A stretch of DNA of 64,000 nucleotides, taken from assembly GCA_041485905.1 (NCBI GenBank), contig JBGPKK010000003.1, positions 2,042 to 66,041 of the forward strand, read 5' to 3'. Below, piece by piece: positions 44,164 to 61,500 of the stretch; positions within the stretch are counted from its first letter, which is position 1, and every line of letters starts with the position of its first letter. Source of the DNA: Vicinamibacteria bacterium. GTDB lineage: Bacteria > Acidobacteriota > Vicinamibacteria > Vicinamibacterales > CAVVIG01. The translations under genes and the position numbers were made by a program. The notes beneath the pieces were generated by a model. The model made no database searches. It was not told the origin of the DNA and worked only from the letters and a program-made list of their open reading frames with translations.

Positions 44164-44453
44164 CAGTCTCGCGGGGCCCTCTGAGGCGCGTCCTTCTCAT
44201 CACGGGTCTGTCGCCGAAGCCGCTCGACGTACGCGGCCAATTCTCCAACCGTACGCACGCCATCCAGCTCCTCGAGGTTGAATCGGACGGCGAACTGCTC
44301 CTCGATTGTCAGCATCAGGTCCATGATGCGAACCGAATCGATGCCGTAGCCGCGCAGCCGTGCTTGGGGGACGACGAGCTCGGGCAAAACGGCGCAAGAC
44401 TCCGCTATCAGGTGTCGAAGCCGCTCGATCGTTTCAATGCCGTTCTCGCTCAT
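44163..44453 (-). CDS. acyl carrier protein
   Basis: 96 aa from MSENGIETIER. Phosphopantetheine site motif YGIDSVRIMDLM. ATGA overlap with the upstream SDR and TGATG overlap with the downstream fusion gene. Confidence 0.8.
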   Translation of the reverse strand: MSENGIETIERLRHLIAESCAVLPELVVPQARLRGYGIDSVRIMDLMLTIEEQFAVRFNLEELDGVRTVGELAAYVERLRRQTRDEKDAPQRAPRD

Positions 44454-45331
44454 CGGTTCGTACTCGAAGCTCGATCCGATCGCTGGGTATCCTGCGGGGA
44501 GCCGTCCGACGCGGTCGTCGCGCCGTAGAACGACAGGAGAAGGCGCTCGCAGATTGACCATGGTAGCGTGCGTTTGAGCAACGCCGAAACCCGCTGGCTC
44601 GGATGACCCACGGTGTAGCGAAGGCGAGTCCGCCGGGCCCGCACAATCCTGGCGACGAGGGTGGCAACCTCCGTGGGTGGAACGCCTTTGGATTCCTCCT
44701 TCTGGACCACGGCAAACGCACGGCTGAACGTGTTGCTGTACGGCGAGCCGTCGCGTGACGCCAGCGCAAACACGCGGTTGCTGGTGATCGCCGTCCGAAC
44801 GTCACCCGGCTCGATCAAGACGACTCGGATTCCGAACGGCCGCGTCTCGAGGCGCAGGCTCTCGCTGAGCCCTTCGAGCGCAAACTTGCTTGCGCAATAC
44901 AGCCCCTGAAAAGGCAGCCCGAAGAGGCCCGCAAGCGAGCTGATATTGACGATGAGACCCGAGCGCTGCCGGCGCATCGACGGCAGGACCGCCCGGCACA
45001 CCCGCAGGACGCCGAACAGATTCGCTTCGAACTGATGCCGAGCCTCTTCGACTGAGGTGTCTTCGACGGAGCCACCGAGGCCGTAGCCCGCGCTGTTGAT
45101 CACACAATCGATGCGCCCATGCTGTCGCAACAGACCTGCCACCCCGCGACCGACTGAGTTGTCGTCGGTCACGTCCATCACGAGAGGTTCGAAAGAGTGT
45201 GGGCGGAAACTCGCCTGTCGGCTGGTCCCGTACACGCGGAATCCCAAAACGGCAAGTTGTTCGGCGCACGCCTGCCCTATCCCGGATGAAGCGCCCGTGA
45301 CCAGCGCGATGGAGGGTTCAGCCGCCATCAT
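44450..45331 (-). CDS. short-chain dehydrogenase/reductase (classical SDR)
   Basis: ALVTGASSGIGQA (TGxxxGxG), NSAG, SSLAG...YCASKFALEG (YxxxK). Confidence 0.88.
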   Translation of the reverse strand: MMAAEPSIALVTGASSGIGQACAEQLAVLGFRVYGTSRQASFRPHSFEPLVMDVTDDNSVGRGVAGLLRQHGRIDCVINSAGYGLGGSVEDTSVEEARHQFEANLFGVLRVCRAVLPSMRRQRSGLIVNISSLAGLFGLPFQGLYCASKFALEGLSESLRLETRPFGIRVVLIEPGDVRTAITSNRVFALASRDGSPYSNTFSRAFAVVQKEESKGVPPTEVATLVARIVRARRTRLRYTVGHPSQRVSALLKRTLPWSICERLLLSFYGATTASDGSPQDTQRSDRASSTNR

Positions 45332-46592
45332 GCACCAGATCGGAGCCCATCTCGCGAAGGACCTCGATTGCGCGGTCCGCGATGAAATGGATGTCCTGTT
45401 CAGTGAGATCGGCGTATACCGAAAACCGCGCAAGGGTGATGCCCTTGGGGATGGCTGGAAACACGAACACGGAGGTGAGTATCCGATGCTCCCTCATGGC
45501 TTCGTAGAAGCGGCACGCCTGCTCATCCCGAAAGAAGATGGAGATGATCTGGCTCGCGCTGCCGGCAGTTCCGATGCCCTGCTGATGCAAACGAGACCTG
45601 AGCAGTTCAGCCATCGCGAGGCAATGCCGCGCTCGCTCCGGCTCGCGGATGACGATCTCCAGCGCCTTCATGTGCCCCGCCGCGAGCACGGCGGAAGTGG
45701 CTGAGCTGAAGAGGACCGGTCGCATACAGGTGCAGAGACTGCGAATCATCTCTTTGCTGCTTGCGACGAACCCTCCGTGTCCCCCCAAGGCCTTGCTCAG
45801 GCTGACGGTTCGAAAATGCACTCGGTCGGCCAGGCCAAGCTCGACGGCAAGTCCTCCTCCCTTCTCGCCGAACATCCCAAAGGAATGTGCCTCGTCGAGG
45901 ATCAGCGTGCAGTCGTATTGCTCGCAGATTTCCACGTAGCGGAGGAGGTCGGGGAGCACGCCGTCGGTGCTGTACAGCGCGTCGATGCACACCAGGCCTG
46001 GTCCATGGATACCGACGCGTTTTTCGAGATGGTCCGGGTCGTTGTGCTTGACGACCACCCGGCGACCTCGCGAGAGGCGAATCCCGTCACTCATGGACGC
46101 GTGGGCGTCCACGTCGATGTAGATCGGCAGGTCCGGCGGAGCGACAGCTTCGATCAGGCCGACATTGGCGGTCCAGCCGGCCGTCGTCAGCACGACGTCG
46201 CCGGCCTGCGTCGACTCACGAAGAAGCGCAACGAAACGCTGGTGCTCCTCGGAGGCGCCGCCAAAGACCGACGAAGAAAACGACTCGATGCGGGGGCGGC
46301 TGTTCGCCTCGCGACGCGCGCGCACGACGTCGGGGTGATTGGCCAGGCGAAGGTAGTCGTTCTGATGCAGCGACAGGAACGCCGTAATGTCAGAGGGCTG
46401 GTCAAAAGGAAACGGCCGGAGACTGTCGATGAACTGCCGGTGTTCCTCGAGGTGGCCCGAAAGCCACGCCGGATACCGCGGGGACCCGGTCTGAGCCCCC
46501 GGGACCTCATCCGGCTGACAGGTGACGTTCAACGGGCCTTCGGAGGGCGGTGACGAGGGCGGTCGCGAGCTCATGGCCTCGGATCTGGACAA
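45318..46592 (-). CDS. alpha-oxoamine synthase family PLP enzyme (BioF/Spt/CqsA-like acyl-thioester : amino acid C-acyltransferase)
   Basis: HQNDYLRLANHP, TTAGWTANVG, DAHASM, ILDEAHSFG, TVSLSKALG (PLP-Lys). HGPGLVCIDALYSTDG resembles the CqsA/LqsA branch as I remember it, but this is not decisive. Confidence 0.88.
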   Translation of the reverse strand: MSRSEAMSSRPPSSPPSEGPLNVTCQPDEVPGAQTGSPRYPAWLSGHLEEHRQFIDSLRPFPFDQPSDITAFLSLHQNDYLRLANHPDVVRARREANSRPRIESFSSSVFGGASEEHQRFVALLRESTQAGDVVLTTAGWTANVGLIEAVAPPDLPIYIDVDAHASMSDGIRLSRGRRVVVKHNDPDHLEKRVGIHGPGLVCIDALYSTDGVLPDLLRYVEICEQYDCTLILDEAHSFGMFGEKGGGLAVELGLADRVHFRTVSLSKALGGHGGFVASSKEMIRSLCTCMRPVLFSSATSAVLAAGHMKALEIVIREPERARHCLAMAELLRSRLHQQGIGTAGSASQIISIFFRDEQACRFYEAMREHRILTSVFVFPAIPKGITLARFSVYADLTEQDIHFIADRAIEVLREMGSDLVHDGG

Positions 46593-46649
46593 CGGCGGGA
46601 GTCGCCGATCGCCGAGCTGATAATACAGGGCGCCCCCCCTTTTGCGAAA

Positions 46650-46913
46650 TCAGCGCACCGGGCTGCGGTTCGATGTGGTCTGAATGAGGGTGATCACGTG
46701 GCCGACCGTTCTTGCGGTGGCCAGCGCATCTTCTGCGAACGTGCGGCCGAGCCTGTCTTCGATATTTCCGAGCATTTCCATGATGCGGATGGAGTCGACC
46801 CCGAGGTCTTTGATTTCCGTGTCGGGATTGAGCCGCGCGAAGCGAGCGGCCTTGTCCGGAGCCACTTCACAGAGCGCATCCCGAATCAGATTCAGGGCGT
46901 CGTCGTCGTCCAT
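46650..46913 (-). CDS. acyl carrier protein
   Basis: 87 aa. DLGVDSIRIMEMLGNIE with the DS phosphopantetheinylation motif. Confidence 0.85.
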   Translation of the reverse strand: MDDDDALNLIRDALCEVAPDKAARFARLNPDTEIKDLGVDSIRIMEMLGNIEDRLGRTFAEDALATARTVGHVITLIQTTSNRSPVR

Positions 46914-46932
46914 AGGTGCTCCTGGCCTTCAT

Positions 46933-49074
46933 TCAGGCAGCGGCGGCGATGCGTTGTGCTGCGTACCGCGCCAGCGCCATGACGGTCAGGGCAATGTTCA
47001 CCGTGATCGGAGACGGAATGACGCTGGCGTCGCAGATCCACAGGTTCTGGACGCCAAACACCTTCATATTGTGATCGACGACGCCGTCGTGCGGCTTCAG
47101 GGCCATCGCGTTTCCGCCCTGCATGTGCGCCGACATCACGCTGATGAAGTCGCTCTGGTCGATGCCGGCAAAGTAGTCGTCGATATCCTCCACGCGCCTC
47201 ACGACCCCGGCATTGAACCTGCTGATGAAGACTTCCTCGGCACCCATCTTGAACATCGCGTGTGCGGTGATCTTCATGCCTTTTGCGAGGCGTCGCCAGT
47301 CTTCATCAATCAGTTTGAAGTCAATCACGAAGCCGCTGTCACCAAGGACACCGCGCCTGATCTCTCCATAAGCCAGCGACGCGAAGACCGGTGTGGCGGT
47401 GATCATGTTGGAGATCCGGCGCAGCCTGCGTTGGAACTCCGGTCCCCAGGCCGGCAGACCGAGGGCGACGAGCCCGGGAGGCGCAAACGCGGTCTCGATG
47501 ATCATCCGCTCCTCGGGCACTTCCACGGCATAGGCGACCTGCTGGGCAAGGAAGGCATCCTGCCGTTCCGGGAACACCCCGATCACCGGCGAACCCACAT
47601 TGACACTGAACCGCCTGCCGACCGTGCGGACACCGGGCACGGCGCCCAGAAATCCGCTGCGCCAGAGCAACTTGGTGGACGCATACGCTCCCGCCGCGAG
47701 AATAAAGCGGTCGGCCTCGATCCGGACCGAACCGCTGCCCTCACCGACATGAATCGCCCGGACCTCGAGGTCCGAGTTCGCGGGTCCCCCAGGCGCGAAC
47801 TCGATCTTGGTCACCCTCGCGTCAGGAACCAGCAGACCGCCATTCCGCACAAATTCGGGGATAAATGTGACCAGCACCGACTGTTTCGCATCGTACTGGC
47901 AGCCCAGGTTGCAACGGCCGCATCCGATGCAATTCAGGGAGTTGGTTGACACTGTGATCGGCTCGAGCACCCGAGCGTACGCGGTGGCGGGGCCCACTCC
48001 CCCCGCGACCAGCTTCGCAAAGCCGTCCCGTACCGTGCGTGCCCCCTTCGAGATGACCCGTTCCTCCATGGGAGTCACGTGCAGGAGCTCGGTGAGCACG
48101 TCGAACTGCCTGTTGAAATCGGCGTAGTCGAGTCTGATGCCAAGATTCTCCCAGCGGCGTTTCAGATCGTCCCACCAGAAACCCGCCGGCCTCAACGCGA
48201 CCGCGTTGTTGACGACGGTGGAGCCGCCCACGCATCGGCCCTGCTGAAACATGAACTGCTGGTCCTTCGACAACGTGATGCCCGCATTCATGTACAGCTG
48301 CGAGAGGGATTCCAACGCCGAGGTCTTGAACTCGTCGTTCGTCACCAGCGGGCCGACTTCGAGCAGGATCACTCGAGCCTTGGGGTTCTCTTCCTGGATC
48401 GTCCGCGCCGCCACCGCGCCTCCGGCTCCTGAGCCGATGACGCAGTAGGTAAGCGACCCGGAGGGCCTGACGGCAACCTCTTGAGGCGACTTCCGGCGCT
48501 CGTGCAGCAGCTTCGACGATTCGGTGCGAGGCGGGTTGCTTAATTCCGGTCCGGAGGGCGGATTCCACGCGCGCTGCACGACAGGCACATATTCCATCGC
48601 GCGCCACAGCCGATCGTCGTCGAGGTAAGCGCTCACCAGCGTGAACTTGAACACGTCAAGAGTGGCGATGGTCTTGACCGTATCGTCTTCTTGTTCGGGA
48701 GCATCTCGGATGAGCATCTGATACATCTGCTCGATCCATGCCGCACGTTTCTCCCGACTCGACGCGAGAAAATGTCCGTGCCCGAGGAAGCTCTTGAATC
48801 CGTACCAGACTTTCACCGCGGCGTGCGCCACACTCGACTTGGGCCACCTCGGAGGCTCATAAAGGGGGAGCAGGGCCAGGGTGCCGATAAACTGCAGGAA
48901 GACCGGGGTGTTCACGCCAGCCAGAAAGCCATCGAGCTTGTTGACGATGGCGCTGCCATCGACTTTAAAGGGGCCGTCTCCATAGCCGAGTATCGATTCG
49001 GCGAAAGCGGCGACGAACGGCTTGTTCGCTTTCCAATAGGCCCATGCCAACAGCCTCGTCAGTTTCTTCAGCAC
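46933..49074 (-). CDS. GMC-family FAD oxidoreductase with about 210-aa N-terminal extension (long-chain alcohol oxidase-like size)
   Basis: FAD motif YCVIGSGAGGAVAARTI about 215 aa into the protein. GGSTVVNNAV. C-terminal MGGNAM...VFGVQNLWICDASVIPS. 713 aa against about 530-560 for ordinary bacterial GMC enzymes. Confidence 0.85.
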   Translation of the reverse strand: MLKKLTRLLAWAYWKANKPFVAAFAESILGYGDGPFKVDGSAIVNKLDGFLAGVNTPVFLQFIGTLALLPLYEPPRWPKSSVAHAAVKVWYGFKSFLGHGHFLASSREKRAAWIEQMYQMLIRDAPEQEDDTVKTIATLDVFKFTLVSAYLDDDRLWRAMEYVPVVQRAWNPPSGPELSNPPRTESSKLLHERRKSPQEVAVRPSGSLTYCVIGSGAGGAVAARTIQEENPKARVILLEVGPLVTNDEFKTSALESLSQLYMNAGITLSKDQQFMFQQGRCVGGSTVVNNAVALRPAGFWWDDLKRRWENLGIRLDYADFNRQFDVLTELLHVTPMEERVISKGARTVRDGFAKLVAGGVGPATAYARVLEPITVSTNSLNCIGCGRCNLGCQYDAKQSVLVTFIPEFVRNGGLLVPDARVTKIEFAPGGPANSDLEVRAIHVGEGSGSVRIEADRFILAAGAYASTKLLWRSGFLGAVPGVRTVGRRFSVNVGSPVIGVFPERQDAFLAQQVAYAVEVPEERMIIETAFAPPGLVALGLPAWGPEFQRRLRRISNMITATPVFASLAYGEIRRGVLGDSGFVIDFKLIDEDWRRLAKGMKITAHAMFKMGAEEVFISRFNAGVVRRVEDIDDYFAGIDQSDFISVMSAHMQGGNAMALKPHDGVVDHNMKVFGVQNLWICDASVIPSPITVNIALTVMALARYAAQRIAAAA

Positions 49075-49313: not shown

Positions 49314-50390
49314 TCAGAACGTTCGACGAAACTCTATTCTGATGATGTTGTTGTACCAGTCCGCGGTCGTGAGCGCGTGTCCGTACCCGACGTACACAGA
49401 GCTGCCACCACCGAATGTCGCGCGGCCACCAACTTTCAGGTTGACGATGTTGATGCCGCTTGCGTTGCTCACGGCTGCCGTCTGAAATCCTCCGAGGACG
49501 TGCCAGCCGACCAGCTCAACGATCGGGCCAAACTGGAGACCATCGCCTTGGTACACCTGGAAGCTCGGGCCGACGCCGTAGTACAGAACATCTCCGGCGA
49601 ACTTGTCCGGGCTTGACGTCGGCACTCCCGCCGACCCATTTGTCGGGTGGACATCGCCGATTTCTGATTCGAGCGCGAGGCGATCTGAAAGCGCTTGGTA
49701 GTAGAGCAGCGAGGGTTCGACGCTCCAGTGGTTCGTCCCCAAACCGTTCAAGGCCTTGCCAGATGGCATCCACGCTTGGAACTGCGCCGTGAGGTGGCTG
49801 TCTTCCGACGCCAGCAGGGCCACCTTCACCCCGGCCCGCGCGTCCCCCAATCCGCTCTGATCGGAAAAGCTCCCGCTCCCCGGCGCAAACGCCTGCGGCT
49901 GAAGCCAGCGCAGCGGAACGTCTACGAATCCGGACACGCGGTTGTGCACCGCGTATTCGCCGCGCAGGCGGAGCTCCTGAAAGTTCAAATCGGTCAGGAC
50001 CGCCGGGCCAGGGCCGGCCGCGTTGGGATCGAACGCGGCGTTGGCCTGGGGCAGGCCGCGGTAGCAGCCGCACTTCGCGTAGAAGAACTCCGCGCGATCT
50101 GGAGTGTCAATGTGGAACCCGGAGTCGAATCGAACCCGCACTTGCGACTCGACCGTGCTGTCGTCGACGTACCCGACCATGCTGGGGCGTCGTCGTCCCG
50201 GGTCGGTCGGGGGCGGTGAGGGCGGCCTCCCCTGAGCGAGCGCATTCGACGCCTGCTGGGACGAAGAGGCGGAGCGGAGGGCATCGAGCCAGACGAGGGC
50301 CCCGGTCGCCGGCGCTCCGTCGGCGCTCGTTTCTTGCGCGACTGCGGTCAGGGGCCATAGAAGCACGATCACTGCGACGAGACGTTGCAT
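49314..50390 (-). CDS. outer-membrane beta-barrel protein (MetA-pathway/phenol-degradation-type hydrophobic compound channel-like)
   Basis: Signal peptide MQRLVAVIVLLWPLTAVAQE, alternating beta-strand pattern, C-terminal IRIEFRRTF ending in Phe. GGAGG RBS. Confidence 0.6.
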   Translation of the reverse strand: MQRLVAVIVLLWPLTAVAQETSADGAPATGALVWLDALRSASSSQQASNALAQGRPPSPPPTDPGRRRPSMVGYVDDSTVESQVRVRFDSGFHIDTPDRAEFFYAKCGCYRGLPQANAAFDPNAAGPGPAVLTDLNFQELRLRGEYAVHNRVSGFVDVPLRWLQPQAFAPGSGSFSDQSGLGDARAGVKVALLASEDSHLTAQFQAWMPSGKALNGLGTNHWSVEPSLLYYQALSDRLALESEIGDVHPTNGSAGVPTSSPDKFAGDVLYYGVGPSFQVYQGDGLQFGPIVELVGWHVLGGFQTAAVSNASGINIVNLKVGGRATFGGGSSVYVGYGHALTTADWYNNIIRIEFRRTF

Positions 50391-50423: not shown

Positions 50424-53318
50424 CTACTGGCGTTGGCTGGTTCCCGGACGCGCCTTTTGCCGAACTTTATCGGATAGCGCCGTCACCGCAGCGCGATCGC
50501 GGGGCGATAGTTCCGGGACCAGGTGTGACAGGCTATCAAGGGCGTCCTGCGCCTCGGCCGGCGATCCCGGAAGAACCCGGTTGACAAGCGCCAGGTAAAC
50601 GCCGAGGGCCCGGGACAAGAGCTGGCGAGGACCTTCGGCGTCTCCAGTCTCCCTGCTCAGAGCCGCCAAGTTTACCAAAAGATCCCCGAAACGGAGTTGG
50701 AATTGCTGAAGGCGCGGCACCGTCGGATCGTTTGCGAGCTTCTCGAACAACGCGAGCGACTCCCGGTATTCGTCTTCCGCACCGCGCGACCCCGCTGACT
50801 GCAGGATCCGGCCCAGGAGGCCGTGCGCATCCGCCTGCTCGATGCCCAGCGACGGCGCGGGGCGAGCCAGATCCTCGAGCAGGTCGATCGCCTGCGCGCT
50901 CCGCTGTCGTGCGGCATCGAAGGCTTTCCTGGTGCGGAGCAGTTCCGCGAGGTTGTTGCAGTACTGGGCGAGCTCCATCTTCGACTCTCGGTTCGTCGGG
51001 TCTGCGGCGACAATACGTTCATCGATCTCGATCGCGCGCGTGAAGAGCGGCTCGACCTCAGCGGCGCGACGATCGTCCTGCGCGAGCAGGCTCGCGAGAT
51101 TGTTGTAGGCCCGCGCCAGTTCCTGGAAGGGCAGCGAATCGGTGGTCTTGCCGGCCAGCGAATCCAGAAGCCGAATCGATTCGCGGAAGTCCGACTCGGC
51201 GCGCTGGAAGTCCGCATCGCCTGGAGTGGCGCTGGAAGCGCGAAGGATGCCCCGGTTGTACAGGGTGCGCGCCAGCTCTTCCTGGTATTTCGCGTTCCGT
51301 GGGCTGTCTCGAACCAGCTGTTGCTGCCGAAGCAAGGCGCTGTCGTAGGCCCTTCCCGCGTCGGCCGCACGGCCGCTCATCGGCCTGAGCGTCTCGCCCA
51401 GCCAGTTCTGGACGTCCGCCAGGGCTTCGCGGTACTCGGCCGTGCGAGGAGAGAGGGCGACGAGGCTTTCGAACGCGGCGATCGCCTGCCGGTATTCCTC
51501 CGCCGCGTTGTCGACCTTCGCGAGCATGCGGCTGATGTGGCCCAGCCGGAGGTGGGCGAAAGCCAGGTCCCTGCGAATGTCCTCGCCGCTCGGCTTCTGC
51601 TGCATCAACGCGACGTAGAAGCGTTCCGCCCTGTTCAGCAACTCCCGGCGGAACTCCTCCATCTGGGGCACGTCCGCGCCGATGCGCGCCGGATCGCGAT
51701 CCGAGGCCGCCAACGTCTGGTCGACCGCGTTTCGGGCCAGCTGGAAGTTGATTTCAGCTCGCGAACTCTCTCTGGACGCCACGTAAGCGAGAGAGGCCGT
51801 GGCGATGAGCAGCGTTCCGAGAACGCCGGCCGCCCACTGCGCGCGCCGGAGCTTGGTCTTTCGCTCCTTCTCGACAGCTGCCTCGACGCGCTGGCGCTCT
51901 CGCTCGCTTCGGAGCAGGAAGTCCATCGCGCGATCCAACGACTCGCCGTACCGCTTCGCCCACGCGGGCGTCGGGTGATTCTCGTCTCTCCAGCGCAATG
52001 CGAGTTCGAGCTCGGGATCGCGCCACAGCCCTGCCGTGCCTTCCTCGCACCACCGGGCGGCCTCCGACAGGCGCACGTAGAAGGCCGCGGCCGTTTGTTC
52101 CTCCTCCGCCCACGCCATCAGACGCGACCAGCACCGCATCAAGCTTTCGTGCGACAGATCGATGATCGCTCGCGAGCTGAGCGGCTTGCCTGGGGGGGGC
52201 ATCAGGAAGCTGCGGCCCCGGGCCCGGAAGATCTCGACGACGCGGATGACCTCGGTTTGATCGATGTCGCAGATCGCGGCAAGCTCGGCGATCGACGTGG
52301 GCCGCCTGACACCGCGCTGATCCGAGAAGCTGTCGGTCAGCGCCTTGAAGATCTGCTCGGCGATCCCTTGCTTGGCTTCGGCGGCGGACTCGGCGTACGC
52401 CTCTTCGGCGTGCATCGAGAGGCAGTTGCGCAACGTGCCGACTTCTTCGTAGTCGACGACGTCGATCGGCTCGCCGGGCTGTGCCCGCCGTTCCCAGTGC
52501 TCCCAGGTTCGCATCAACGCGTGCTGCAGGACCGGAAGCTGGTCCTGATCGGCACCAAGATCGTTGAGCATGCGGACCACAAGGCGCGGTGCAATCGTGG
52601 CGCCGCCGACCGCCACCGGTCCGGTCATGGCCGATCGCAGCTCGTCGCGCGTCATGCGGGGCACGAGGTACTGGCCGGCGTTGACCGCTTCGGGGAGCCC
52701 GATGAACTCCGTGCAGTCGCCGATGAAATCGGACCGCATGGTCAAGACGGCGTAAATTGGAATCTCGTTCTGTCTGGTGGCCTCGAGCAGCAGCTTGACG
52801 AAGGCCGCCGCCTCGTCTCTCGAATTTTCGAACTGCCGACTCCGGTGGAAGCGAAACAGCTCCTCGAACTGATCGACGACGACCAGGAGGTTGTCGTCGC
52901 GCGGAATTTGTGCCTGCCGGACGAGGTCGACAAGCCCGAGCGTGCTGCGGCGGAGCGTGGCGTCGAACAGCACCGCGTTCGTGCTGGCCAGGTCATCGTC
53001 GACTGCGAGGACACCGGGGGCGTCGAGCGCGGCGGCCAGATGGGAGATCGGATCCTCGCCTGGTCGAAACATCGCCACGCGCCAGCTGGTGCCCGCCCGG
53101 GCCATGAAGCCGCTGTGCAGGGATGGAATCAGCCCCGAGCGGACGAGAGACGACTTGCCGCTGCCCGAGGTGCCGACGACCGAGACGAACCGCGTCATCC
53201 GCAGGCGCCGAACCAGATCGTCGGTTTCCTTCTCGCGTCCGAAGAAGAGATGGTCTTCGTCCGGCTCGAACGGGCGCAGTCCGGGAAAAGGATTGAAGAG
53301 CGCGCCGGTCGGACTCAC
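50424..53318 (-). CDS. nSTAND1-type STAND NTPase with central TM helix and C-terminal TPR array
   Basis: N-terminus NPFPGLRPFEPDEDHLFFGRE, Walker A VVGTSGSGKSSLV, Walker B LLVVVDQFEELF, then the helical/wHTH region. A hydrophobic helix WAAGVLGTLLIATASLAYVA follows KERKTKLRRAQ. The last about 430 aa are TPR-like repeats. GTG start overlaps the upstream stop (GTGA). Confidence 0.85.
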   Translation of the reverse strand: MSPTGALFNPFPGLRPFEPDEDHLFFGREKETDDLVRRLRMTRFVSVVGTSGSGKSSLVRSGLIPSLHSGFMARAGTSWRVAMFRPGEDPISHLAAALDAPGVLAVDDDLASTNAVLFDATLRRSTLGLVDLVRQAQIPRDDNLLVVVDQFEELFRFHRSRQFENSRDEAAAFVKLLLEATRQNEIPIYAVLTMRSDFIGDCTEFIGLPEAVNAGQYLVPRMTRDELRSAMTGPVAVGGATIAPRLVVRMLNDLGADQDQLPVLQHALMRTWEHWERRAQPGEPIDVVDYEEVGTLRNCLSMHAEEAYAESAAEAKQGIAEQIFKALTDSFSDQRGVRRPTSIAELAAICDIDQTEVIRVVEIFRARGRSFLMPPPGKPLSSRAIIDLSHESLMRCWSRLMAWAEEEQTAAAFYVRLSEAARWCEEGTAGLWRDPELELALRWRDENHPTPAWAKRYGESLDRAMDFLLRSERERQRVEAAVEKERKTKLRRAQWAAGVLGTLLIATASLAYVASRESSRAEINFQLARNAVDQTLAASDRDPARIGADVPQMEEFRRELLNRAERFYVALMQQKPSGEDIRRDLAFAHLRLGHISRMLAKVDNAAEEYRQAIAAFESLVALSPRTAEYREALADVQNWLGETLRPMSGRAADAGRAYDSALLRQQQLVRDSPRNAKYQEELARTLYNRGILRASSATPGDADFQRAESDFRESIRLLDSLAGKTTDSLPFQELARAYNNLASLLAQDDRRAAEVEPLFTRAIEIDERIVAADPTNRESKMELAQYCNNLAELLRTRKAFDAARQRSAQAIDLLEDLARPAPSLGIEQADAHGLLGRILQSAGSRGAEDEYRESLALFEKLANDPTVPRLQQFQLRFGDLLVNLAALSRETGDAEGPRQLLSRALGVYLALVNRVLPGSPAEAQDALDSLSHLVPELSPRDRAAVTALSDKVRQKARPGTSQRQ

Positions 53319-54811
53319 CCCTGGCCTCCCAGGAGGGTCCCTTTCAGGCGGGAGACCAGCGGCCGCAGGGGATCGAGCGAAAACCCTTCGAACTGGGGAA
53401 TGACCAGAGCTTCATGAGTGCGAAACCGTTCCTTCTCCGCGGTCCGCGGGGCGATGACGGCGATGCCGACAACCGGTCGCGGCTTGGTCCGGCCGAGGCC
53501 GGCCGCCTTCTGGATCTCGCGCAGCTTGCGCCGCAGCCAGATCTCGCTCGCGGTTCCGTAAAACAGCAGCACGCCGTCGCAGGTCGACAGGTTTTCGTCG
53601 TGGAACTCCCGGATCTCGGCTTCGTCGCCCTCGAAGGCCGGTCGAATGGTCTCCAGATGCTCCTCAAACAGCGCGTCCGCCCACGCGGAGACTTGCTGTT
53701 CGTCGCGCTGGTCGTAGACCAAATACAGCCGAGGCAAATCGCCGGACACCGCAGCAACGCTGGTCTCGACGGTCGGTTCCAGCGGCCGCTTCAGCTGATC
53801 GTGAATGACCGTCGTCAGGTCTTCCAGAAACGTCTCGAGCAGGTCCGCGCCCTGGTGAGCCCGCGGATCGAGGCGGAGTCGATCGATGACCTGTCGCTGC
53901 CGCGGATCGGTCACGTCGAGCCCGGGAGGGATCCACAGGATTCGCGAGAACTTCCCCGCCTCGCCCCGTTCGATGGCGAGTTCGTTCTGAATCTCGATGA
54001 GCGACTCCAGGGCGCCTTCCGGGACCAAGCTGTAGTGTTTGCCGATGAGGTGGACTGACATCCGACAGCGCGCCAGATTTTCACGAACCGTCGCCTTCAG
54101 GTCGGAGTCGACCGGCGGCAGCGCCGCCTCCGGGAAAACCGTGTAGCCGTGCTGCAGCAGGTCGCGCCTGATCGCTTCGCGCTGCTCTCTCAAATCACTC
54201 GTGGTCTCCGCAAGAAATACCCCGCCTTTTCCGACTTCGGTTGGCGCCGTCGTCCCTGGCGGGCTTTCCAGCTTCTCGAGCAGCGCGCAGATGTCATGGG
54301 CCAGGTCGTCGAGCTTGATCCAGAAGTCGCGTTGCGCGGACGGTCCGAACACCTCGTCGAGCTCTCGGATTTTTCCGGTCTCGGGATCGATCTTGTAGAA
54401 CTCGTATCCGAGCAACGGTCGCAGTTGGGCGGGCGTGCTGTCGAGCGGGATCGGCGTCTTCAGGACCTTGAAGATTCGTGCCTTGCCGGCCACGGTGAGG
54501 CCGCCCTGTCGCTCGGCAGCCGTCCAAAACTCTGAGAGCTCGCGCAGCGTCCACTCCGACTTGATGTAACGCGGCGAGACAACCGACACGAGGACGGCCA
54601 CGCGCGCCAGTCGTGCGACCAGGGTCTCGGCAAAGAAATCGTTACCCTGCAGTTTGGGATCGCGCCAGATGTGCGGCGACTTGCCCAGCAGCTGCGCAAC
54701 CCGGACTTCCAGGGCGCGATGCAGGTTTGAAACCCATCCTTTCTGTCCCTCGACCAGCTCGACGTTGTCCAGGTGGGCGTAGCTGATGAAGGCATCACCC
54801 TCAAAGTCCAT
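53315..54811 (-). CDS. TIR domain protein with additional DUF4062-like and third TIR-like/flavodoxin-like modules
   Basis: Start MDFEGDAFISYAHLDN (GAGGGGA RBS). SPRYIKSEWTLRELSEF (SxWxxxEL with Glu). Second module VFLAETTSDLREQREAIRRDLLQHGYTV...IGKHYSLVPEGALESLIEIQNELA. Third module LYLVYDQRDEQQVSAWADALF...DGVLLFYGTASEIWLRRKL. Confidence 0.8.
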   Translation of the reverse strand: MDFEGDAFISYAHLDNVELVEGQKGWVSNLHRALEVRVAQLLGKSPHIWRDPKLQGNDFFAETLVARLARVAVLVSVVSPRYIKSEWTLRELSEFWTAAERQGGLTVAGKARIFKVLKTPIPLDSTPAQLRPLLGYEFYKIDPETGKIRELDEVFGPSAQRDFWIKLDDLAHDICALLEKLESPPGTTAPTEVGKGGVFLAETTSDLREQREAIRRDLLQHGYTVFPEAALPPVDSDLKATVRENLARCRMSVHLIGKHYSLVPEGALESLIEIQNELAIERGEAGKFSRILWIPPGLDVTDPRQRQVIDRLRLDPRAHQGADLLETFLEDLTTVIHDQLKRPLEPTVETSVAAVSGDLPRLYLVYDQRDEQQVSAWADALFEEHLETIRPAFEGDEAEIREFHDENLSTCDGVLLFYGTASEIWLRRKLREIQKAAGLGRTKPRPVVGIAVIAPRTAEKERFRTHEALVIPQFEGFSLDPLRPLVSRLKGTLLGGQG

Positions 54812-54960
54812 GCGCGGTTCCCCTCTGGGGTGCTGATTGGAGCGAGCCTCAAAAACCAAGTTTAGGCTAGGCCAAAAGCAGGGACCTGTCCAGCGCGCGG
54901 CCGTGGGCCGCGGCTCGGGTTGACCGGCGGTCGGCCGACGCGCCAAGATCAGGGCCTCCT

Positions 54961-56877
54961 GTGGACGAGCCCACTCAACTCACCGCAACCGCGTTCCAAC
55001 GGGCCGGCCAGGAGCTGCTCCAGCGAAGCGAGCCGCTCGCGGCCTACGACGCGCTCGCCGACGGTCTCCGACAGTTTCCCGGCGATGTCCGCTTGCGACA
55101 GTTAACGGCGCTCGCGCTGGCGCGATCCGGAGCGAGCCAACTCGCGAGCCCGATCCTGCATGAGCTGCTGCGCGAGGGGCACGAGGACGAAGAAACGCTC
55201 GGTCTTCTCGCGCGGACCCACAAGGATCTCTGGGCGGCCAGTATTGACGCCTCGGAGCGACGCCGGCATCTCGAGCAGGCGTCTCACTTCTACCTGGTGG
55301 CCCACCGCGCGTTCGGCGGGATCTGGAGCGGGATCAATGCGGCGACGATGGCGCTGCTGCTCGGTGATGCGCAGACCGCCACGGCGCTCGCCCTGAGCGT
55401 CCGCGAGCAGTGCCGGTTGAATCTACGCGCCGATCCGAGTGCGGGCGACGACTACTGGACGGTCGCGACGCTGGGTGAGGCGGCCCTCATTCTGCAGGAT
55501 TGGCCCCAGGCGGAAGACTGGTACGCGCGCGCGTCCGCGCTTGGCGCCACCCATCTGGGCGACCTGGCGTCCACCCGCCGCAACGCCCGTCTGATCCTCT
55601 GCCACCTCCAGGCCGGCGGCGCCCGCATCGAAGCCTGTCTGCGAATTCCGAACGTCGTTCTGTGCGCGGGTCACCTCATCGACCGTCCTGATCGGACCGA
55701 GCCCCGGTTCCCGCCCGAGCTCGAGCCGGCCGTGCGCTCGGCGATTGGTGACCGGCTTCGAGAGGTGGGCGTCGGGTTCGGATACGCGTCGGCGGCCTGT
55801 GGCGCCGACATCCTGTTCCTCGAGAGCGTGCTCGAGTTGGGCGGCGAAGCCCACGTCATTCTCCCCTATGATCGCGAACGGTTTGTCGAGGACAGCGTCG
55901 ATCTCGGTCCCGGGACCGACTGGATCGGACGATTCGAGCGTGTCCTTGCCGGGGCGCATGACGTGCACACCGCGTCGCATCATCGCATGGGCACCGGTGG
56001 CGTCTCTTACGAATACGGATTTCTGCTGATGGATGGGGCCGCCGCTCTTCGGGCGGATGAGCTGGACACGGAGCTCGTGTGTCTCGCTGTGTGGGACGGC
56101 AAACCTGGCGACGCGGTGGGCGGAACGGCAACTGCGGTCGCGCGGTGGCGGCGGGCGCGCCGCCGCGTCGAGGTCATCGACCTTGCCGAGATCATGCGGC
56201 GCCAGACGCCGTTGATCATCGCGCCCCAGAGCGCTACCCCCGCGCCGGACGCGGACACCGACGCGGGTGTGGCGCCGGGACCGCGCGCGACTGCTTCAAA
56301 CGACGCTGGGCCCGTTTGCGAGCCCGAGATCGTCGGTCTGCTGTTCGCCGACGCTCGGGGCTTCAGCAAGCTGACCGACGCGGACATCCCGATCTTCGTC
56401 GAGCATTACCTCAGCATCGTGGTACGTAAGCTGGAGGCAGTCGAGCAAGAGCCCCTCTTGAGGAACACGTGGGGCGATGGTCTGTATCTCGCGTTCCGGA
56501 ACGTGCGCGATGCCGGAATCTTCGCGCTCGACTTGTGTGAAGCCGTTCGAGACACTGACTGGCAGGCAAAGGGGCTCTCGACCGATCTGAGCCTGCGGAT
56601 CGGTCTTCACGCCGGGCCTGCGTATTCATGCATCGATCCGGTCACCGGCCGTCCCAATATCTTCGGCGCTCACGTGAGCCAGGCCGCCCGCATTGAACCG
56701 ATCACACCGCCCGGTCACGTGTACGCAAGCGGCGCGTTCGCTGCGCTCGCGCGCGCGGACGAAGTGCGGGAGTTCGTGTGTGCCTACGTCGGTCGGACGC
56801 CGCTCGCCAAGAGCTATGGTGCATTCCCGACCTACGTCCTTCATCGTCGGAGGGAGCCGGCCCGTGAGCGCCCGTGA
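54961..56877 (+). CDS. three-module protein: DUF4071 (TRAF-binding/TPR-like) + SLOG-like Rossmann module + class III nucleotidyl cyclase domain
   Basis: aa 1-225: ETLGLLARTHKDLW and GINAATMALLLG (DUF4071-like). aa 230-410: VVLCAGHLIDRPDRTEPRFPPE...ASAACGADILFLESVLELGGEAHVILP...LAVWDGKPGDAVGGTA. aa 456-628: LLFADARGFSKL, WGDGLYLAF, RIGLHAGP, FGAHVSQAARIE (cyclase homology domain). GTG start, no clear RBS. Confidence 0.78.
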   Translation: MDEPTQLTATAFQRAGQELLQRSEPLAAYDALADGLRQFPGDVRLRQLTALALARSGASQLASPILHELLREGHEDEETLGLLARTHKDLWAASIDASERRRHLEQASHFYLVAHRAFGGIWSGINAATMALLLGDAQTATALALSVREQCRLNLRADPSAGDDYWTVATLGEAALILQDWPQAEDWYARASALGATHLGDLASTRRNARLILCHLQAGGARIEACLRIPNVVLCAGHLIDRPDRTEPRFPPELEPAVRSAIGDRLREVGVGFGYASAACGADILFLESVLELGGEAHVILPYDRERFVEDSVDLGPGTDWIGRFERVLAGAHDVHTASHHRMGTGGVSYEYGFLLMDGAAALRADELDTELVCLAVWDGKPGDAVGGTATAVARWRRARRRVEVIDLAEIMRRQTPLIIAPQSATPAPDADTDAGVAPGPRATASNDAGPVCEPEIVGLLFADARGFSKLTDADIPIFVEHYLSIVVRKLEAVEQEPLLRNTWGDGLYLAFRNVRDAGIFALDLCEAVRDTDWQAKGLSTDLSLRIGLHAGPAYSCIDPVTGRPNIFGAHVSQAARIEPITPPGHVYASGAFAALARADEVREFVCAYVGRTPLAKSYGAFPTYVLHRRREPARERP

Positions 56878-58583: not shown

Positions 58584-61500
58584 ATGCGCGCGTTTCACTC
58601 CCGTCCGATGCGGTCTCGCTTTGCGCCCCCCAGGTCGCGTGCCTTCCTCGTCTCGCTCGCGCTGATGGTGTTCGCGGCGCGGCTCGCCGCCGGTGAGCCG
58701 CAGCAGCCGGCACGCTCGAAACCGATCGCGGCCGGTGCGCAGGGGAAGATCGTGCTCATTCAGGGGCATGTCGACTCGGCGCTGGCGAGCGATCAGGAAA
58801 AGTGGGATACGGCGAAGCTGTTTCAGCCACTCTTCGTCAGCGACCGCGTGCGGACACTGACCGCGAGCCGCAGCGCGATTCTTTTCGTTGACGAAACCCA
58901 GGTGAAGCTCAACGGCGGCGCGGTTCTCACCGTGCAGCAGATCAAAACCGCCGGCGGCACGTCGACGACCCTCGGTCTGCTCGAAGGCGAAGGGTGGTTC
59001 CGCACGAAGAACCCGGCGAGCGGGCTGACGATCAGGACGCCGACGGCCGCTGCCGCCATCCGCGGCACCGAAATTAACCTGGCGATTCGCGGTCAGAACA
59101 CGGTGCTCACCGTCACTGAAGGGGCTGCGGAATTCTCCAACGACGCCGGGTCGCTGCTCGTCACTGCCGGCGAGGAAGCGACGGCGACTCCGGGACAGCC
59201 GCCCACCAAGCGCGTGCTGCTCAATCCGGAAGACGCCGTGCAGTGGGTCCTGTATTATCCGACGCGCGCGGCCTGGCACGATCTGCCCATGGCCGCACAG
59301 GCCGGTCCGGCGCGCGCAGGATTCGATCGCATGAAGGCCGGCGATGCCGCGGGCGCGCTCGCCGCGTTTCAGCCGGTGGTGACCGCCGACATCTGGGCGC
59401 GCATCGGCGCCGCGATGGCGCACGAGCAGCTCGGCGACGCGGCGCTAGCGCGCTCGCTGCTGATGGCCGGGACCGCAACCGGAGAGGCCGAGGTGGAGCG
59501 CCGGACCGAGCTGGCGGCGGCAGCGCTGGCGATGGGCGATGCGGGCGCGGCGCGCACGGAGATCGAGGCGGCCCGCGCGCTCGATTCGACGGCGGCGCGT
59601 CCGCTCGCGCTCCTCTCCGCGCTCGAGCTCACGCAGAACCACAAAGAGGAAGCGGCTGCGGCCGCGCGGTCCGCCGTCGCCGCGGATCAAGACTCTGTGG
59701 CGGCGCACGTCGCGGCAGCCGAAGCCGCGCAGGCGGCTTTTGATCTGGAGGCGGCGCGGCGCGAGCTGGACACGGCGCTGGCGATCGATCCGGCCGACAC
59801 CCGCGCACTGGTCGATCGCGCGCGCATCCGCTTCGGCGTCGCTGATACGGCCGGCGCGCGACAGGATGCCGACCGGGCGGTGGCGATCGCGCCGGCCGAT
59901 GCCCAGGCTCGATCGCTGCTCGGCTTCATCGAGCTCGCGGACGGGGCGGGGGATGCGGCGCGAGTGGATTTCGAAGCCTCTGTCGCGGCCGACGCGGCGC
60001 TTGGCGAGCCGCATCTCGGTCTAGGCCTCCTCGACTTCCGCCACGACCAGATCGACGATGGGCTGCTCGAAATGCTCACCGCGACGCTGCTCGAGCCAAA
60101 GGTGTCGCTCTATCAGAGCTATCTCGGCAAGGCGTACTACCAGCTTCGACGTTTTCCTGAAGGGCTCGCGGCGCTCACGACGGCCAAGCGGCTCGATTCG
60201 CGCGACCCGACGCCGTGGCTGTACACCAGCCTGTTCCTGCGCGATCTGAACCGCCACATCGCAGCACTCGACGAGCTCCGACATGCCATTGCCCTCAACG
60301 ACAACCGCGCGGTGTATCGAAGCCGGCTGCTGCTCGATCGGGATCTGGCCACGAAGAACGTCAGTCTCGCCCAGCTGTACAACCAGCTTGGGTTCGAGGC
60401 GTGGGGCGCGTCCGAAGCGCTCAACTCCCTGAACGCGGACCTCACCAACGCCAGCGCCCATCTGTTCCTCTCGCAAACGTACGGCAACTTGCCCGATCGC
60501 ACGCAGGCGCTCGGCAGCGAGCTGCTGCAGTACTTTCTGTACGCACCAGTGAATCTCAACTCGTTCAATAATTTCAGCGAATACACGGCGCTCCTCGAAC
60601 AGCCGCTCAAGCAGGCGCTCGTCACCTCCGGCGGGGGCAACGACGGATACGCGACCACAGACGTCACCACCCGCTCGGGTAACCAGCGGTTTGCGCACGT
60701 CGCGTTCCTCGACTACAGCCGTCGCGACGGCCCGCGGATCGACGGCTCCGATCACCGCGTGCAGGGGTTCGCGCAGGGGAAGGTGGCGCTTGGCGCGGCG
60801 AGCGACCTGTTCTTCAGTGTCACGGGCGTCAAGAATACTCGCGGGCAGAGCAACGATGTGACGCGCACGATCGGCACGTTCCCGAATGTGGTGCTGGTCA
60901 ACGAAATCCGGGAGAGCCGCGACGCCACCTTCACGCACCGCGACGACACGGCCGAGGCGACGCTGGGATTCAAGCACCTATGGCGGCCAGGCTCGGCGTT
61001 CACCGCGGCGACGGCCTTCAGTTACCTGGGAAGCTCGGACGAAGATCCGGAGGCGATCACGTCGGCATGTCAGGGTTTCGATCTCAGCCAGTTCTTCTCG
61101 CATTCATCCTCGCGGCTCACCTATCCGTATCACTCGTATACCCTTCAGGCGCAGCAAGCCACGCGGATTGGGCGACATCAGATACTCTTCGGGACCGAGT
61201 TCTCTCACCGTAACAAGACGTTCAGCTGCCACGAAGATATCCTGTTCGACCCCACTGGCGAGCTCGTGGCGCACTTGGACAACGAGTCGAGCGCGACCGA
61301 GCACGTGGCCTCAGGCTACGTGCGCGACGACATCGAGCTCGGGCGTCGCGTACATGCGACCGTCGGCGCCCGGTACGAAAATGGCCTGTACGGAGACGTG
61401 CAGCAGACGTTCGACGATTTCACCTTCGGGCGCTGGAATCCGTACGCCGGGCTGTCAGTTCGACTCTCGTCGGCCACTGTGATTCACCTGGCGGGATTCC

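Follow-up and report, generated by a model that had tools for sequence, protein, structure and literature searches.

We analyzed a stretch of 64,000 nucleotides from a Vicinamibacteria bacterium (Acidobacteriota; GenBank assembly GCA_041485905.1, contig JBGPKK010000003.1, positions 2,042 to 66,041 of the forward strand), referred to as the window herein, in which three minus-strand genes, A, B, and D, follow one another closely. A encodes a predicted effector made of three TIR-fold modules, B a STAND NTPase of the nSTAND1 type that ends in a TPR array, and D an outer-membrane beta-barrel; a fourth gene, C, is divergent from A. An earlier interpretation made from the DNA letters (the sequence-only reading) had proposed A and B as a candidate two-gene immune or conflict system, a model that amounts to a cytosolic system resembling Avs and NLR proteins. 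We retained its general logic of an effector, a STAND switch, and a repeat sensor. Our analysis points to a cassette of three genes rather than two, in which the sensor would face the periplasm. The features are listed in Table 1.

Table 1. Features of the A-B-D cassette and of the adjoining gene C, in window coordinates
Feature	Coordinates	Strand	Description
Gene A	53315..54811	minus	498 aa, cytoplasmic, three TIR-fold modules, predicted effector
A module 1	54272..54811	minus	aa 1-180; TIR, FISYAH strand, SxWxxxEL helix, E91 as candidate catalytic Glu
A module 2	53777..54226	minus	aa 196-345; DUF4062/NIR-like (beta-alpha)5 module
A module 3	53327..53737	minus	aa 359-495; TIR/NDT-fold, possible adaptor to the STAND N-terminus
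Gene B	50424..53318	minus	964 aa, nSTAND1 - transmembrane helix - TPR, single-pass membrane STAND NTPase
B nSTAND1 NTPase module	52044..53291	minus	aa 10-425, cytoplasmic, Walker A GTSGSGKSS, Walker B VVVDQFEE
B predicted transmembrane helix	51768..51836	minus	aa ~495-517, AAGVLGTLLIATASLAYVA
B TPR array	50529..51761	minus	aa ~520-930, predicted periplasmic sensor or docking domain
Gene D	49314..50390	minus	358 aa, outer-membrane beta-barrel, signal peptide, low-complexity N-terminal extension, C-terminal ...RRTF
Gene C	54961..56877	plus	638 aa, TPR-S / alpha-beta middle / class III cyclase-like; facultative partner, divergent from A
Intergenic region A-C	54812..54960		149 bp, divergent, presumed shared regulatory region

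The longest mechanical open reading frame (ORF) of A reaches back to a TTG at 54946. Homologs of A all begin at the position of the ATG at 54811, with the pattern M-x-F-E-G-D-A-F-I-S-Y-A-H, and a GAGGGG lies about 8 nt 5′ of this ATG, from which the protein opens MDFEGDAFISYAH. The homolog starts and the ribosome-binding site ahead of the ATG rule out the TTG start, which is an artefact, and bear out the start that the sequence-only reading had chosen; its candidate catalytic glutamate, numbered aa 136, is E91 when counted from the ATG. Both ORFs, their minus-strand coordinates, and the GTGA through which A and B had been described as translationally coupled were confirmed in the sequence. At 53318-53315 the TGA of A overlaps the GTG of B, GGGAGG precedes this GTG, and no alternative start codon lies between the GTG and the invariant NPFPGLRPF motif of B. 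A search with A yielded 1930 homologs at E ≤ 1e-5, the best 120 of which are full length, all about 490-530 aa long, and 63-70% identical to it. Judged by the number and identity of these homologs, the A/B observation lies far beyond chance. No transmembrane helix was predicted in A, where the Kyte-Doolittle (KD) maximum of 1.72 falls within the beta-C strand.

When A was compared with Pfam, TIR_2 (PF13676) matched aa 8-101 with 43.5 bits against a cut-off of 28 (E 5e-11). DUF4062 (PF13271) matched aa 198-260 with 24.3 bits, just below its cut-off of 24.7, and a precomputed PF13271 match is present in 61 of 120 listed A homologs by our own count; the DUF4062-like call is a borderline one. Residue conservation was taken from an alignment of 197 sequences, with identity expressed relative to the window protein. 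The TIR part (aa 1-180) has the highest mean identity of any part, 73-75%; modules 2 and 3 follow at 64% and 62%, and the two inter-module linkers stand at about 20%. Within module 1, E91, S85, and W87 are each kept in at least 97% of the sequences. In a PDB profile search with the whole of A, SPRYVKSEWTRKEL aligned weakly (E 0.17) to SENYARSRWCLDEL of RUN1, and the RUN1 motif brought opposite the E91 region is WCLDEL, the site of the plant TIR catalytic glutamate. With TIR_2 above its cut-off and E91 this well conserved, the assignment of a TIR domain with a catalytic glutamate stands.

An AlphaFold2 (AF2) model of full-length A gave modules 2 and 3 a predicted local distance difference test score (pLDDT) of about 90, and each adopts a (beta-alpha)5 fold. 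Foldseek with this model returned TIR matches; the matching module is not indicated, and the N-terminal third of the model is poor. DUF4062 domains, also called NIR or TeTIR, are TIR-like NADases with an essential glutamate (KpSwz E97, PsAvs2 E108, Vulcan E98, TEP1 E1008, and Eva01 E87) and have been shown to be NADases in Avs2, Swarozyc, Vulcan, and TEP1 (bioRxiv 10.64898/2026.05.01.722283; 10.64898/2026.09.04.749371). In Eva01, the beta-A Phe and the catalytic Glu (F11-E87) are 76 residues apart. Applied to module 2, where the Pfam alignment is free of net indels as far as aa 260, this spacing leads from F199 to an invariant Gln275 flanked by E273 and E277. S270, Q275, and R282 are kept in at least 97% of the sequences and E273 in at least 90%. 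A PDB sequence search with module 2 alone gave no match.

Module 3 was also modeled alone with AF2 and again gave a (beta-alpha)5 fold (pLDDT 87, predicted TM-score 0.84). Its best Foldseek matches in the PDB are mostly TIR domains (RPS4, TIR-1, BtTir, SPARTA TIR-APAZ, RUN1, SARM1, and MyD88) and N-glycosidases of the NDT/DNPH1/BcmB kind, with TM-scores of 0.55-0.65 and E values near 1e-3; other flavodoxin-like folds score similarly. E387, E423, W425, K429, and E432 are kept in at least 97% of the sequences. The invariant Lys429 sits four residues past W425, where TIRs carry the Glu, and E432 lies one helical turn further on. Comparison of the three modules with one another by hhalign found no significant similarity, which leaves a tandem repeat of TIR domains without a basis in sequence. 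The label TIR-like therefore suits module 3 only at the level of the modeled fold. The sequence-only reading had described three tandem TIR-like effector modules. The catalytic glutamate of module 1 and the fold of module 3 agree with that description; the Gln that spacing places at the Glu position of module 2 and the Lys of module 3 do not. Module 1 appears to be the only clearly catalytic one of the three; for modules 2 and 3, a role in regulation, nucleotide binding, or docking is probable.

B carries an nSTAND1 domain (PF20703) at aa 10-425, which matched with 318.5 bits (E 1.2e-94). G49, S51, G52, G54, K55, S56, and S57, as well as D149, Q150, F151, E152, and E153, are kept in at least 95% of orthologs. 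TPR_12 and other TPR profiles match its tail weakly, and the TPR periodicity and the Ala/Tyr/Leu positions are conserved. The earlier description of B as an nSTAND1 protein with Walker A and B motifs and a TPR tail is upheld by these data. Identity of the orthologs to the window protein is 69% over the NTPase and 47% and 39% over the two TPR halves; by this measure the TPRs are more variable than the NTPase and far from hypervariable.

Between the NTPase and the TPRs, B has a hydrophobic segment, RRAQW-AAGVLGTLLIATASLAYVA-SRE. Using the Kyte-Doolittle scale with a 19-residue window (KD19), we obtained a score of 1.82 for the window protein and of 1.76-3.0 at the same position in all 65 full-length orthologs. 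The flanks of this helix have a net charge of +3.8 on the N-terminal side and +1.4 on the C-terminal side, the N-terminal side being the more positive in 57 of 66 sequences, a bias that fits the positive-inside rule. With a single transmembrane span and a P-loop NTPase that is necessarily cytoplasmic, the ~440-aa TPR array would lie in the periplasm. It is thus predicted to be a periplasmic domain and not a cytosolic, Avs-like sensor, and on this point the sequence-only reading was not borne out.

Searching exhaustively with aa 1-530 of B in HMMER, we retrieved 10,028 representatives of 50%-identity clusters at E ≤ 1e-30. The nearest 150 of these are 46-65% identical to B, and in 144 of them a single hydrophobic stretch falls within aa 440-560, its flanks biased in charge as in B. 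C-terminally, these proteins carry WD40 propellers (26 of 43 sampled) or TPRs. The nSTAND1 clade nearest to B is thus made up almost uniformly of predicted single-pass membrane proteins, a topology that we did not find mentioned in the searchable literature. One of these representatives, P0123 (1138 aa), has two nSTAND1 modules with about four hydrophobic segments between them and another near the C-terminus.

D begins 33 nt after B. It matched Phenol_MetA_deg, a Pfam family of clan MBB, with 30.6 bits against a cut-off of 22, and has a signal peptide (MQRLVAVIVLLWPLTAVA/QE), as do its orthologs. A low-complexity extension of about 50 aa precedes the barrel, and 63 of 69 orthologs end in Phe, as the window protein does. 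Synteny was assessed in 80 species-level loci taken from GTDB genomes. B lies directly 3′ of A in each of the 79 loci with sufficient sequence, and 69 of 69 loci have an ortholog of D within 1.5 kb 3′ of B, which in six of them is inverted. A, B, and D therefore form a strictly conserved, mostly acidobacterial cassette. Of the two-gene system proposed from sequence alone, the tight coupling of A and B stands, strengthened by one in-frame fusion described below; its restriction to two genes does not, since D is an obligatory third member.

The fusion occurs outside the orthologous group. P0137, in the region 2780-8919 of L087, joins an A-type triple module in frame to an nSTAND1 domain over 972 aa, with module 3 directly preceding nSTAND1 and with neither a transmembrane helix nor TPRs. 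A NACHT-FGE-sulfatase protein comes directly before it, and FitA/PIN toxin-antitoxin genes and IS110/rve transposases are nearby, a mobile, defense-like context unlike that of the window. Longer TPR versions of B (1043 and 1524 aa) have an A-type gene immediately 5′. At L091 (6001-12331) and L092, an operon of overlapping genes encodes a 1279-aa nSTAND1 protein with a transmembrane helix and WD40 repeats, a 337-aa sugar-type periplasmic-binding protein (PBP) with a lipoprotein signal (lipobox LISAGC), and a 494-aa ortholog of A that is 46% identical to the window protein across all three modules. At L093 (755-6110), a 353-aa TIR and DUF4062 ORF is followed by a separate 129-aa ORF for module 3, which overlaps the start of an nSTAND1-WD40 gene that also encodes a transmembrane helix; HicAB lies upstream. 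The position of module 3 in P0137 and at L093 hints that it may be a STAND-proximal adaptor, although the split at L093 may be an assembly frameshift. An extracytoplasmic partner thus recurs, as an outer-membrane barrel or as a lipoprotein PBP, which lends independent support to an extracytoplasmic sensor domain.

Gene C combines a TPR-S domain (E 1.7e-18), a match of the TPR type to MAP3K_TRAF_bd (E 3e-7), and a Guanylate_cyc domain (31.4 bits, cut-off 21.9). In a PDB sequence search only the cyclase domain matched, with the beta subunit of soluble guanylate cyclase as the closest entry (E 3e-5). Its metal-binding D464 and D506 and its R577 are conserved, and a conserved Ser replaces the canonical Asn. 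The middle domain (aa 215-440) had no Pfam, NCBIfam, or PDB sequence match; by eye it looks SLOG/LOG-like, with G237-H238, G281-x-D283..F286-x-E288, and G388-T389 conserved. Most C orthologs have an additional N-terminal RyR domain that the C of the window lacks. In the A-C intergenic region and the locus we found no sigma-70-like promoter, nothing in a terminator scan, and no Rfam match.

About 44 of 81 loci have a C-type gene alongside the cassette, in one of four positions: upstream on the same strand, upstream and divergent, or downstream of D in either orientation. Nine loci, all without C, instead have a SLATT/DUF4231 protein with two transmembrane segments (E 3e-21) just 5′ of A or 3′ of D, so that C and SLATT are mutually exclusive among cassette loci. 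An extra TIR_2-Sel1 protein abuts the cassette in four to seven loci, and a CapV-like patatin, which matched the PADLOC model of a CBASS phospholipase effector (E 8e-46), is found in five. The attachment of SLATT, patatin, and an extra TIR favors conflict-type nucleotide signaling.

Relatives of A are encoded in 264 matched stretches of GTDB genomes, nearly all from Acidobacteriota: Terriglobia (including Acidobacteriaceae and Acidoferrales), Bryobacterales, Vicinamibacterales, and Thermoanaerobaculia. Outside the phylum we found two Woeseiaceae and one "Dormibacterota" bin. Cassette orthologs are 50-70% identical across acidobacterial classes. Assembly CAWEPW01 holds two A-B-D copies on different contigs (L026 and L027), with A 63% identical to that of the window in both; these are either paralogs or the result of a mixed bin. 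Each of the other genomes represented in the 80 listed loci has a single copy. The cassette behaves like a lineage-typical chromosomal module that is mostly inherited vertically, not like mobile defense cargo.

In the window, the GC content of the locus is unremarkable. On one side the cassette is flanked by genes for an SPT-like aminotransferase, an acyl carrier protein, a GMC oxidoreductase, and an SDR protein; on the other lie a metallo-beta-lactamase-type hydrolase, a small membrane protein, and a FecR-TPR-barrel protein. The last is a 1189-aa ORF (58584-62153, plus strand) that unites a FecR domain at its N-terminus, TPRs, and a beta-barrel like that of TonB-dependent receptors; it is unusual in joining a sensor domain of the sigma-regulator type to an outer-membrane barrel. 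The run of minus-strand genes at 41257-49074 encodes a 968-aa class III aminotransferase fused to a shikimate-dehydrogenase-like domain, the SDR protein, an AONS/SPT-like class I/II aminotransferase, the acyl carrier protein, and the GMC oxidoreductase, which is extended considerably at its N-terminus; together these genes may serve the biosynthesis of an aminolipid or a sphingolipid-like compound. A tRNA-Leu at 572-658 on the minus strand, far from the cassette, is the only RNA gene found in the window.

From the domain identities, the conservation of E91, the hydrophobic helix of B with its charge bias, the outer-membrane features of D, the synteny, the fusion, and the types of partner, we infer a topology, contacts, a direction of signaling, an enzymatic product, and a biological role for the cassette. 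D would reside in the outer membrane and B would be anchored in the inner membrane with its TPRs in the periplasm and its nSTAND1 module in the cytoplasm, where A would be soluble. The periplasmic TPRs would register a ligand or a perturbation of the envelope, perhaps while docked on D or on its disordered N-terminal extension. By analogy with STAND and NLR biology, the signal would then cross the membrane and permit NTP-dependent oligomerization of nSTAND1. A would be recruited and clustered, plausibly via its module 3 and the NPFPGLRPF motif that is invariant at the N-terminus of B. As the biochemistry of TIR, NIR, and Avs proteins suggests, the clustered TIRs may form composite active sites that cleave NAD+, leading to its depletion, to an NAD-derived messenger, or to both. 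Accessories that vary with lineage (the TPR-S/cyclase protein here; SLATT, CapV-like patatin, or TIR-Sel1 elsewhere) might amplify or execute the response. In our estimate the chances are even that A, B, and D form such an envelope-spanning, outside-in signaling operon with a role in conflict or stress, that is, in growth arrest or abortive death.

The combination of a STAND NTPase with a TIR or NIR effector and a repeat sensor is known already from Avs, from nSTAND1 conflict systems (PMC8195603), and from the NIR systems of 2026. Avs, and PsAvs2 especially (bioRxiv 10.64898/2026.09.04.749371), resemble the cassette in their NADase-type effector, STAND module, and TPR-like sensor logic, and in the NIR/DUF4062 module, and the same mechanism, NAD+ cleavage driven by oligomerization, would be expected of both. 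Avs are single polypeptides, whereas the cassette encodes its effector, with three TIR-fold modules, as a protein of its own. The cassette NTPase is an nSTAND1 outside the Avs clades and leaves the PADLOC Avs models unmatched, and the cassette differs further in its transmembrane helix with TPRs predicted outside the cytoplasm, in its obligatory outer-membrane protein, and in having no defense-island or mobile context. We rejected membership in Avs on the absence of a PADLOC Avs match, the encoding of the effector in its own gene, and the transmembrane helix ahead of the TPRs.

The nSTAND1 systems of Kaur, Iyer, Burroughs, and Aravind (eLife 2021, PMC8195603), in which nSTAND1 was defined as a conflict-system NTPase, share the NTPase clade with the cassette, have TIR among their effectors, and can be divided over separate polypeptides. 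For the membrane-associated EACC1 system (eLife 2020, PMC7159879) we found the nearest remark on topology, namely that some variable regions contain transmembrane helices followed by an extracellular PBP domain. The sensors reported for nSTAND1 and EACC1 systems are FGS or lectin domains, their adaptors are EADs, and their partners are caspases or EACC1; the cassette has no EAD. No nSTAND1 protein with a transmembrane helix and TPRs, a dedicated outer-membrane barrel, and a triple TIR-fold partner is described in the searchable literature. A literature search on TPR-S and nSTAND1 turned up nothing beyond the eLife 2021 paper that named nSTAND1 and a paper on diversity-generating retroelements that uses the term, and targets of these retroelements have been predicted to be periplasmic (PMC10907252).

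Swarozyc, Vulcan, Vesta, and Evangelion are like the cassette in using the DUF4062/NIR TIR-like fold, and their catalytic glutamate is needed for NAD+ depletion. Each is one protein in which DUF4062 is joined to an auxiliary domain, often on mobile elements or in defense islands; in the cassette, DUF4062 is the middle of three modules, a borderline match, and has a possible Gln at the catalytic position. Thoeris (ThsB with ThsA) likewise uses a stand-alone TIR with a catalytic glutamate, and SLATT or patatin may act downstream in some cassette loci, whereas the invariant partners of the cassette TIR are a STAND NTPase and an outer-membrane protein. Membership in Thoeris was rejected, as the NCBIfam ThcB4 model gave A only 14 bits against a cut-off of 220 (E 0.015) and no ThsA-like neighbor (SIR2, or Macro with SLOG) was found. 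The FxSxx-COOH system resembles the cassette in pairing the TIR-like FxsC with FxsT, a STAND-TPR protein (NB-ARC/TPR), and FxsC_Nterm is the best NCBIfam match of A, at 50.9 bits (E 1.7e-13). This score falls short of the cut-off of 130 and no radical-SAM FxsB or FxsA peptide genes are conserved nearby, and we did not assign A to FxsC. C was not assigned to Pycsar or CBASS either, given the lack of a PADLOC match, the 31.4-bit cyclase-like score, and its presence in only about half of the loci.

Toll-like receptors and Ser/Thr kinases of the PknD/PknB type have an external repeat domain, a single transmembrane helix, and a cytoplasmic signaling module. The likeness of these receptors to the cassette is one of analogy: the cassette would have this topology, and TIR chemistry or assembly would be its cytoplasmic output, as in Toll-like receptors. 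Sensor and switch are not homologous to those of Toll-like receptors or PknD; in the cassette, the STAND module intervenes between the membrane and the TIR, which is on a separate protein. The cassette is distinctive for its split triple TIR-fold effector, its predicted membrane-spanning STAND protein with external TPRs, its obligatory outer-membrane barrel, and its phylum-wide, largely vertical distribution, and it looks like an uncharacterized route from an envelope signal to NAD+ cleavage.

A number of observations weigh against an envelope-spanning operon with a conflict or stress role. By Pfam, 149 flanking proteins from about 50 loci have diverse housekeeping functions and include three integrases. 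Few of them matched PADLOC models at E ≤ 1e-5, and most of these are the patatin and TIR accessories; the others are single matches to mad2/3/8, LeoA, and candidate families. A, B, and C themselves had no significant PADLOC match, which agrees with the earlier statement that its architecture matches no recognizable named defense system, and we rejected a defense-island location on these flanks. No relative of the cassette was found among the viral contigs searched, and the plasmids searched gave only two distant partial matches (Caballeronia). The clustering of A largely tracks taxonomy; among a few exceptions is the window, which has 64% GC but falls in a group with low-GC Terriglobia. The conservation of the TPR sensor (39-47%) fits a self or environmental ligand as well as a phage cue. 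On the side of mechanism, AF2 with a 120-sequence alignment gave the TIR module a pLDDT below 50 even though no other part of A is as well conserved, conservation and spacing suggest that catalytic glutamates may be missing from modules 2 and 3, and the topology of B is derived only from hydropathy and charge bias. Co-conservation of A and B, which the sequence-only reading had asked about, is complete in the 79 loci compared; the immune role it proposed is not backed by context, since the cassette is mostly vertical, shows no defense-island enrichment or viral-contig match, and has TPRs that are not hypervariable. Housekeeping surroundings of the homologs had been named there as evidence to the contrary. 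Several of these points favor a different use of the same outside-in architecture, namely housekeeping or environmental signal transduction in response to a nutrient, the state of the envelope, or a cell-cell cue. The TIR output would then be a regulated NAD-derived second messenger, integrated by the cyclase partner with cyclic nucleotide monophosphate signaling. We regard this as a serious alternative, if a less likely one. The conservation across acidobacterial classes with its taxonomic clustering, the single copy in nearly all genomes, the housekeeping flanks, the near absence from viruses and plasmids, and the moderate variability of the TPRs all speak for it, as do the retained metal ligands of C and the sugar-type periplasmic-binding lipoprotein of the WD40-type relatives, a classic small-molecule sensor. 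It has to contend with the published record, in which all bacterial STAND systems with TIR or NIR characterized so far are antiviral, with accessories (SLATT, CapV-like patatin, and extra TIR) that are typical death effectors, and with relatives set among conflict genes, as the fused P0137 is beside NACHT-FGE-sulfatase, toxin-antitoxin, and transposase genes and L093 next to HicAB.

The model of the sequence-only reading, in which A and B would be a cytosolic antiphage pair of the Avs/NLR type, with soluble TPRs that bind a phage protein and three TIR-like modules that act as NADase effectors, keeps its TIR, DUF4062, nSTAND1, and TPR calls. It can draw on the existence of Avs2 proteins with an NIR effector and a TPR sensor that sense terminase (10.64898/2026.09.04.749371) and on P0137, where the A-type part is fused to an nSTAND1 with no transmembrane helix in a mobile, defense-like context. 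We nevertheless think it improbable, as the hydrophobic helix is found in 65 of 65 orthologs with a basic cluster on the NTPase side, the secreted outer-membrane partner is obligatory and gives way to a lipoprotein PBP in the relatives, PADLOC returned for B only marginal, sub-threshold P-loop matches (mad8, mad3, and DpdH) and no Avs, and the cassette lies outside defense islands. Less credible still is a trans-envelope export or assembly apparatus comparable to PgaA, BcsC, PelB, or AlgK-AlgE, with STAND and TIR as regulators or as suppliers of a nucleotide cargo. A periplasmic TPR array with an outer-membrane beta-barrel is the hallmark of synthase-dependent exopolysaccharide export, which the pairing of TPRs and barrel resembles. 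D also belongs to a transporter-like barrel family, and the neighboring gene often encodes a nucleotide cyclase. Genes for a synthase, a glycosyltransferase, or another producer of cargo are not conserved with the cassette, however; the replacement of the barrel by a PBP in relatives fits sensing, and STAND with TIR is elsewhere always a signaling and effector pairing. We give this reading a very small chance, and rejected exopolysaccharide export as such on the finding that no gene for a synthase, a glycosyltransferase, or a cyclic di-GMP receptor recurs in the flanks of 81 loci.

To our knowledge, the bacterial STAND and NLR-like immune proteins studied experimentally (Avs, bNACHT, and related proteins) are all cytosolic sensors of phage proteins. 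If the envelope-spanning reading of the cassette is true, NAD+-based responses could be triggered before, or without, anything entering the cytoplasm, a Toll-like logic built from STAND parts. If its topology is right, STAND switches would also serve as transmembrane receptors, the NADase output of TIR and NIR domains could be driven by periplasmic or outer-membrane events, and a very large family of nSTAND1 proteins with a transmembrane helix and TPR or WD40 repeats would have been assigned the wrong topology. We hold it quite possible, at somewhat under even odds, that these proteins make up an undescribed large class of envelope-spanning NLR-like receptors with an nSTAND1 switch, a transmembrane helix, a TPR or WD40 ectodomain, an extracytoplasmic partner, and a TIR or NIR output. 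The triple TIR-fold A may be a naturally occurring combination of an active TIR with two degenerate, regulatory TIR folds. Were the role of the cassette non-immune, it would be an example of STAND and TIR in ordinary signal transduction, which would be equally informative. For the Acidobacteriota, a dominant but little-studied soil phylum, the cassette provides a testable, phylum-wide module for signaling or defense.

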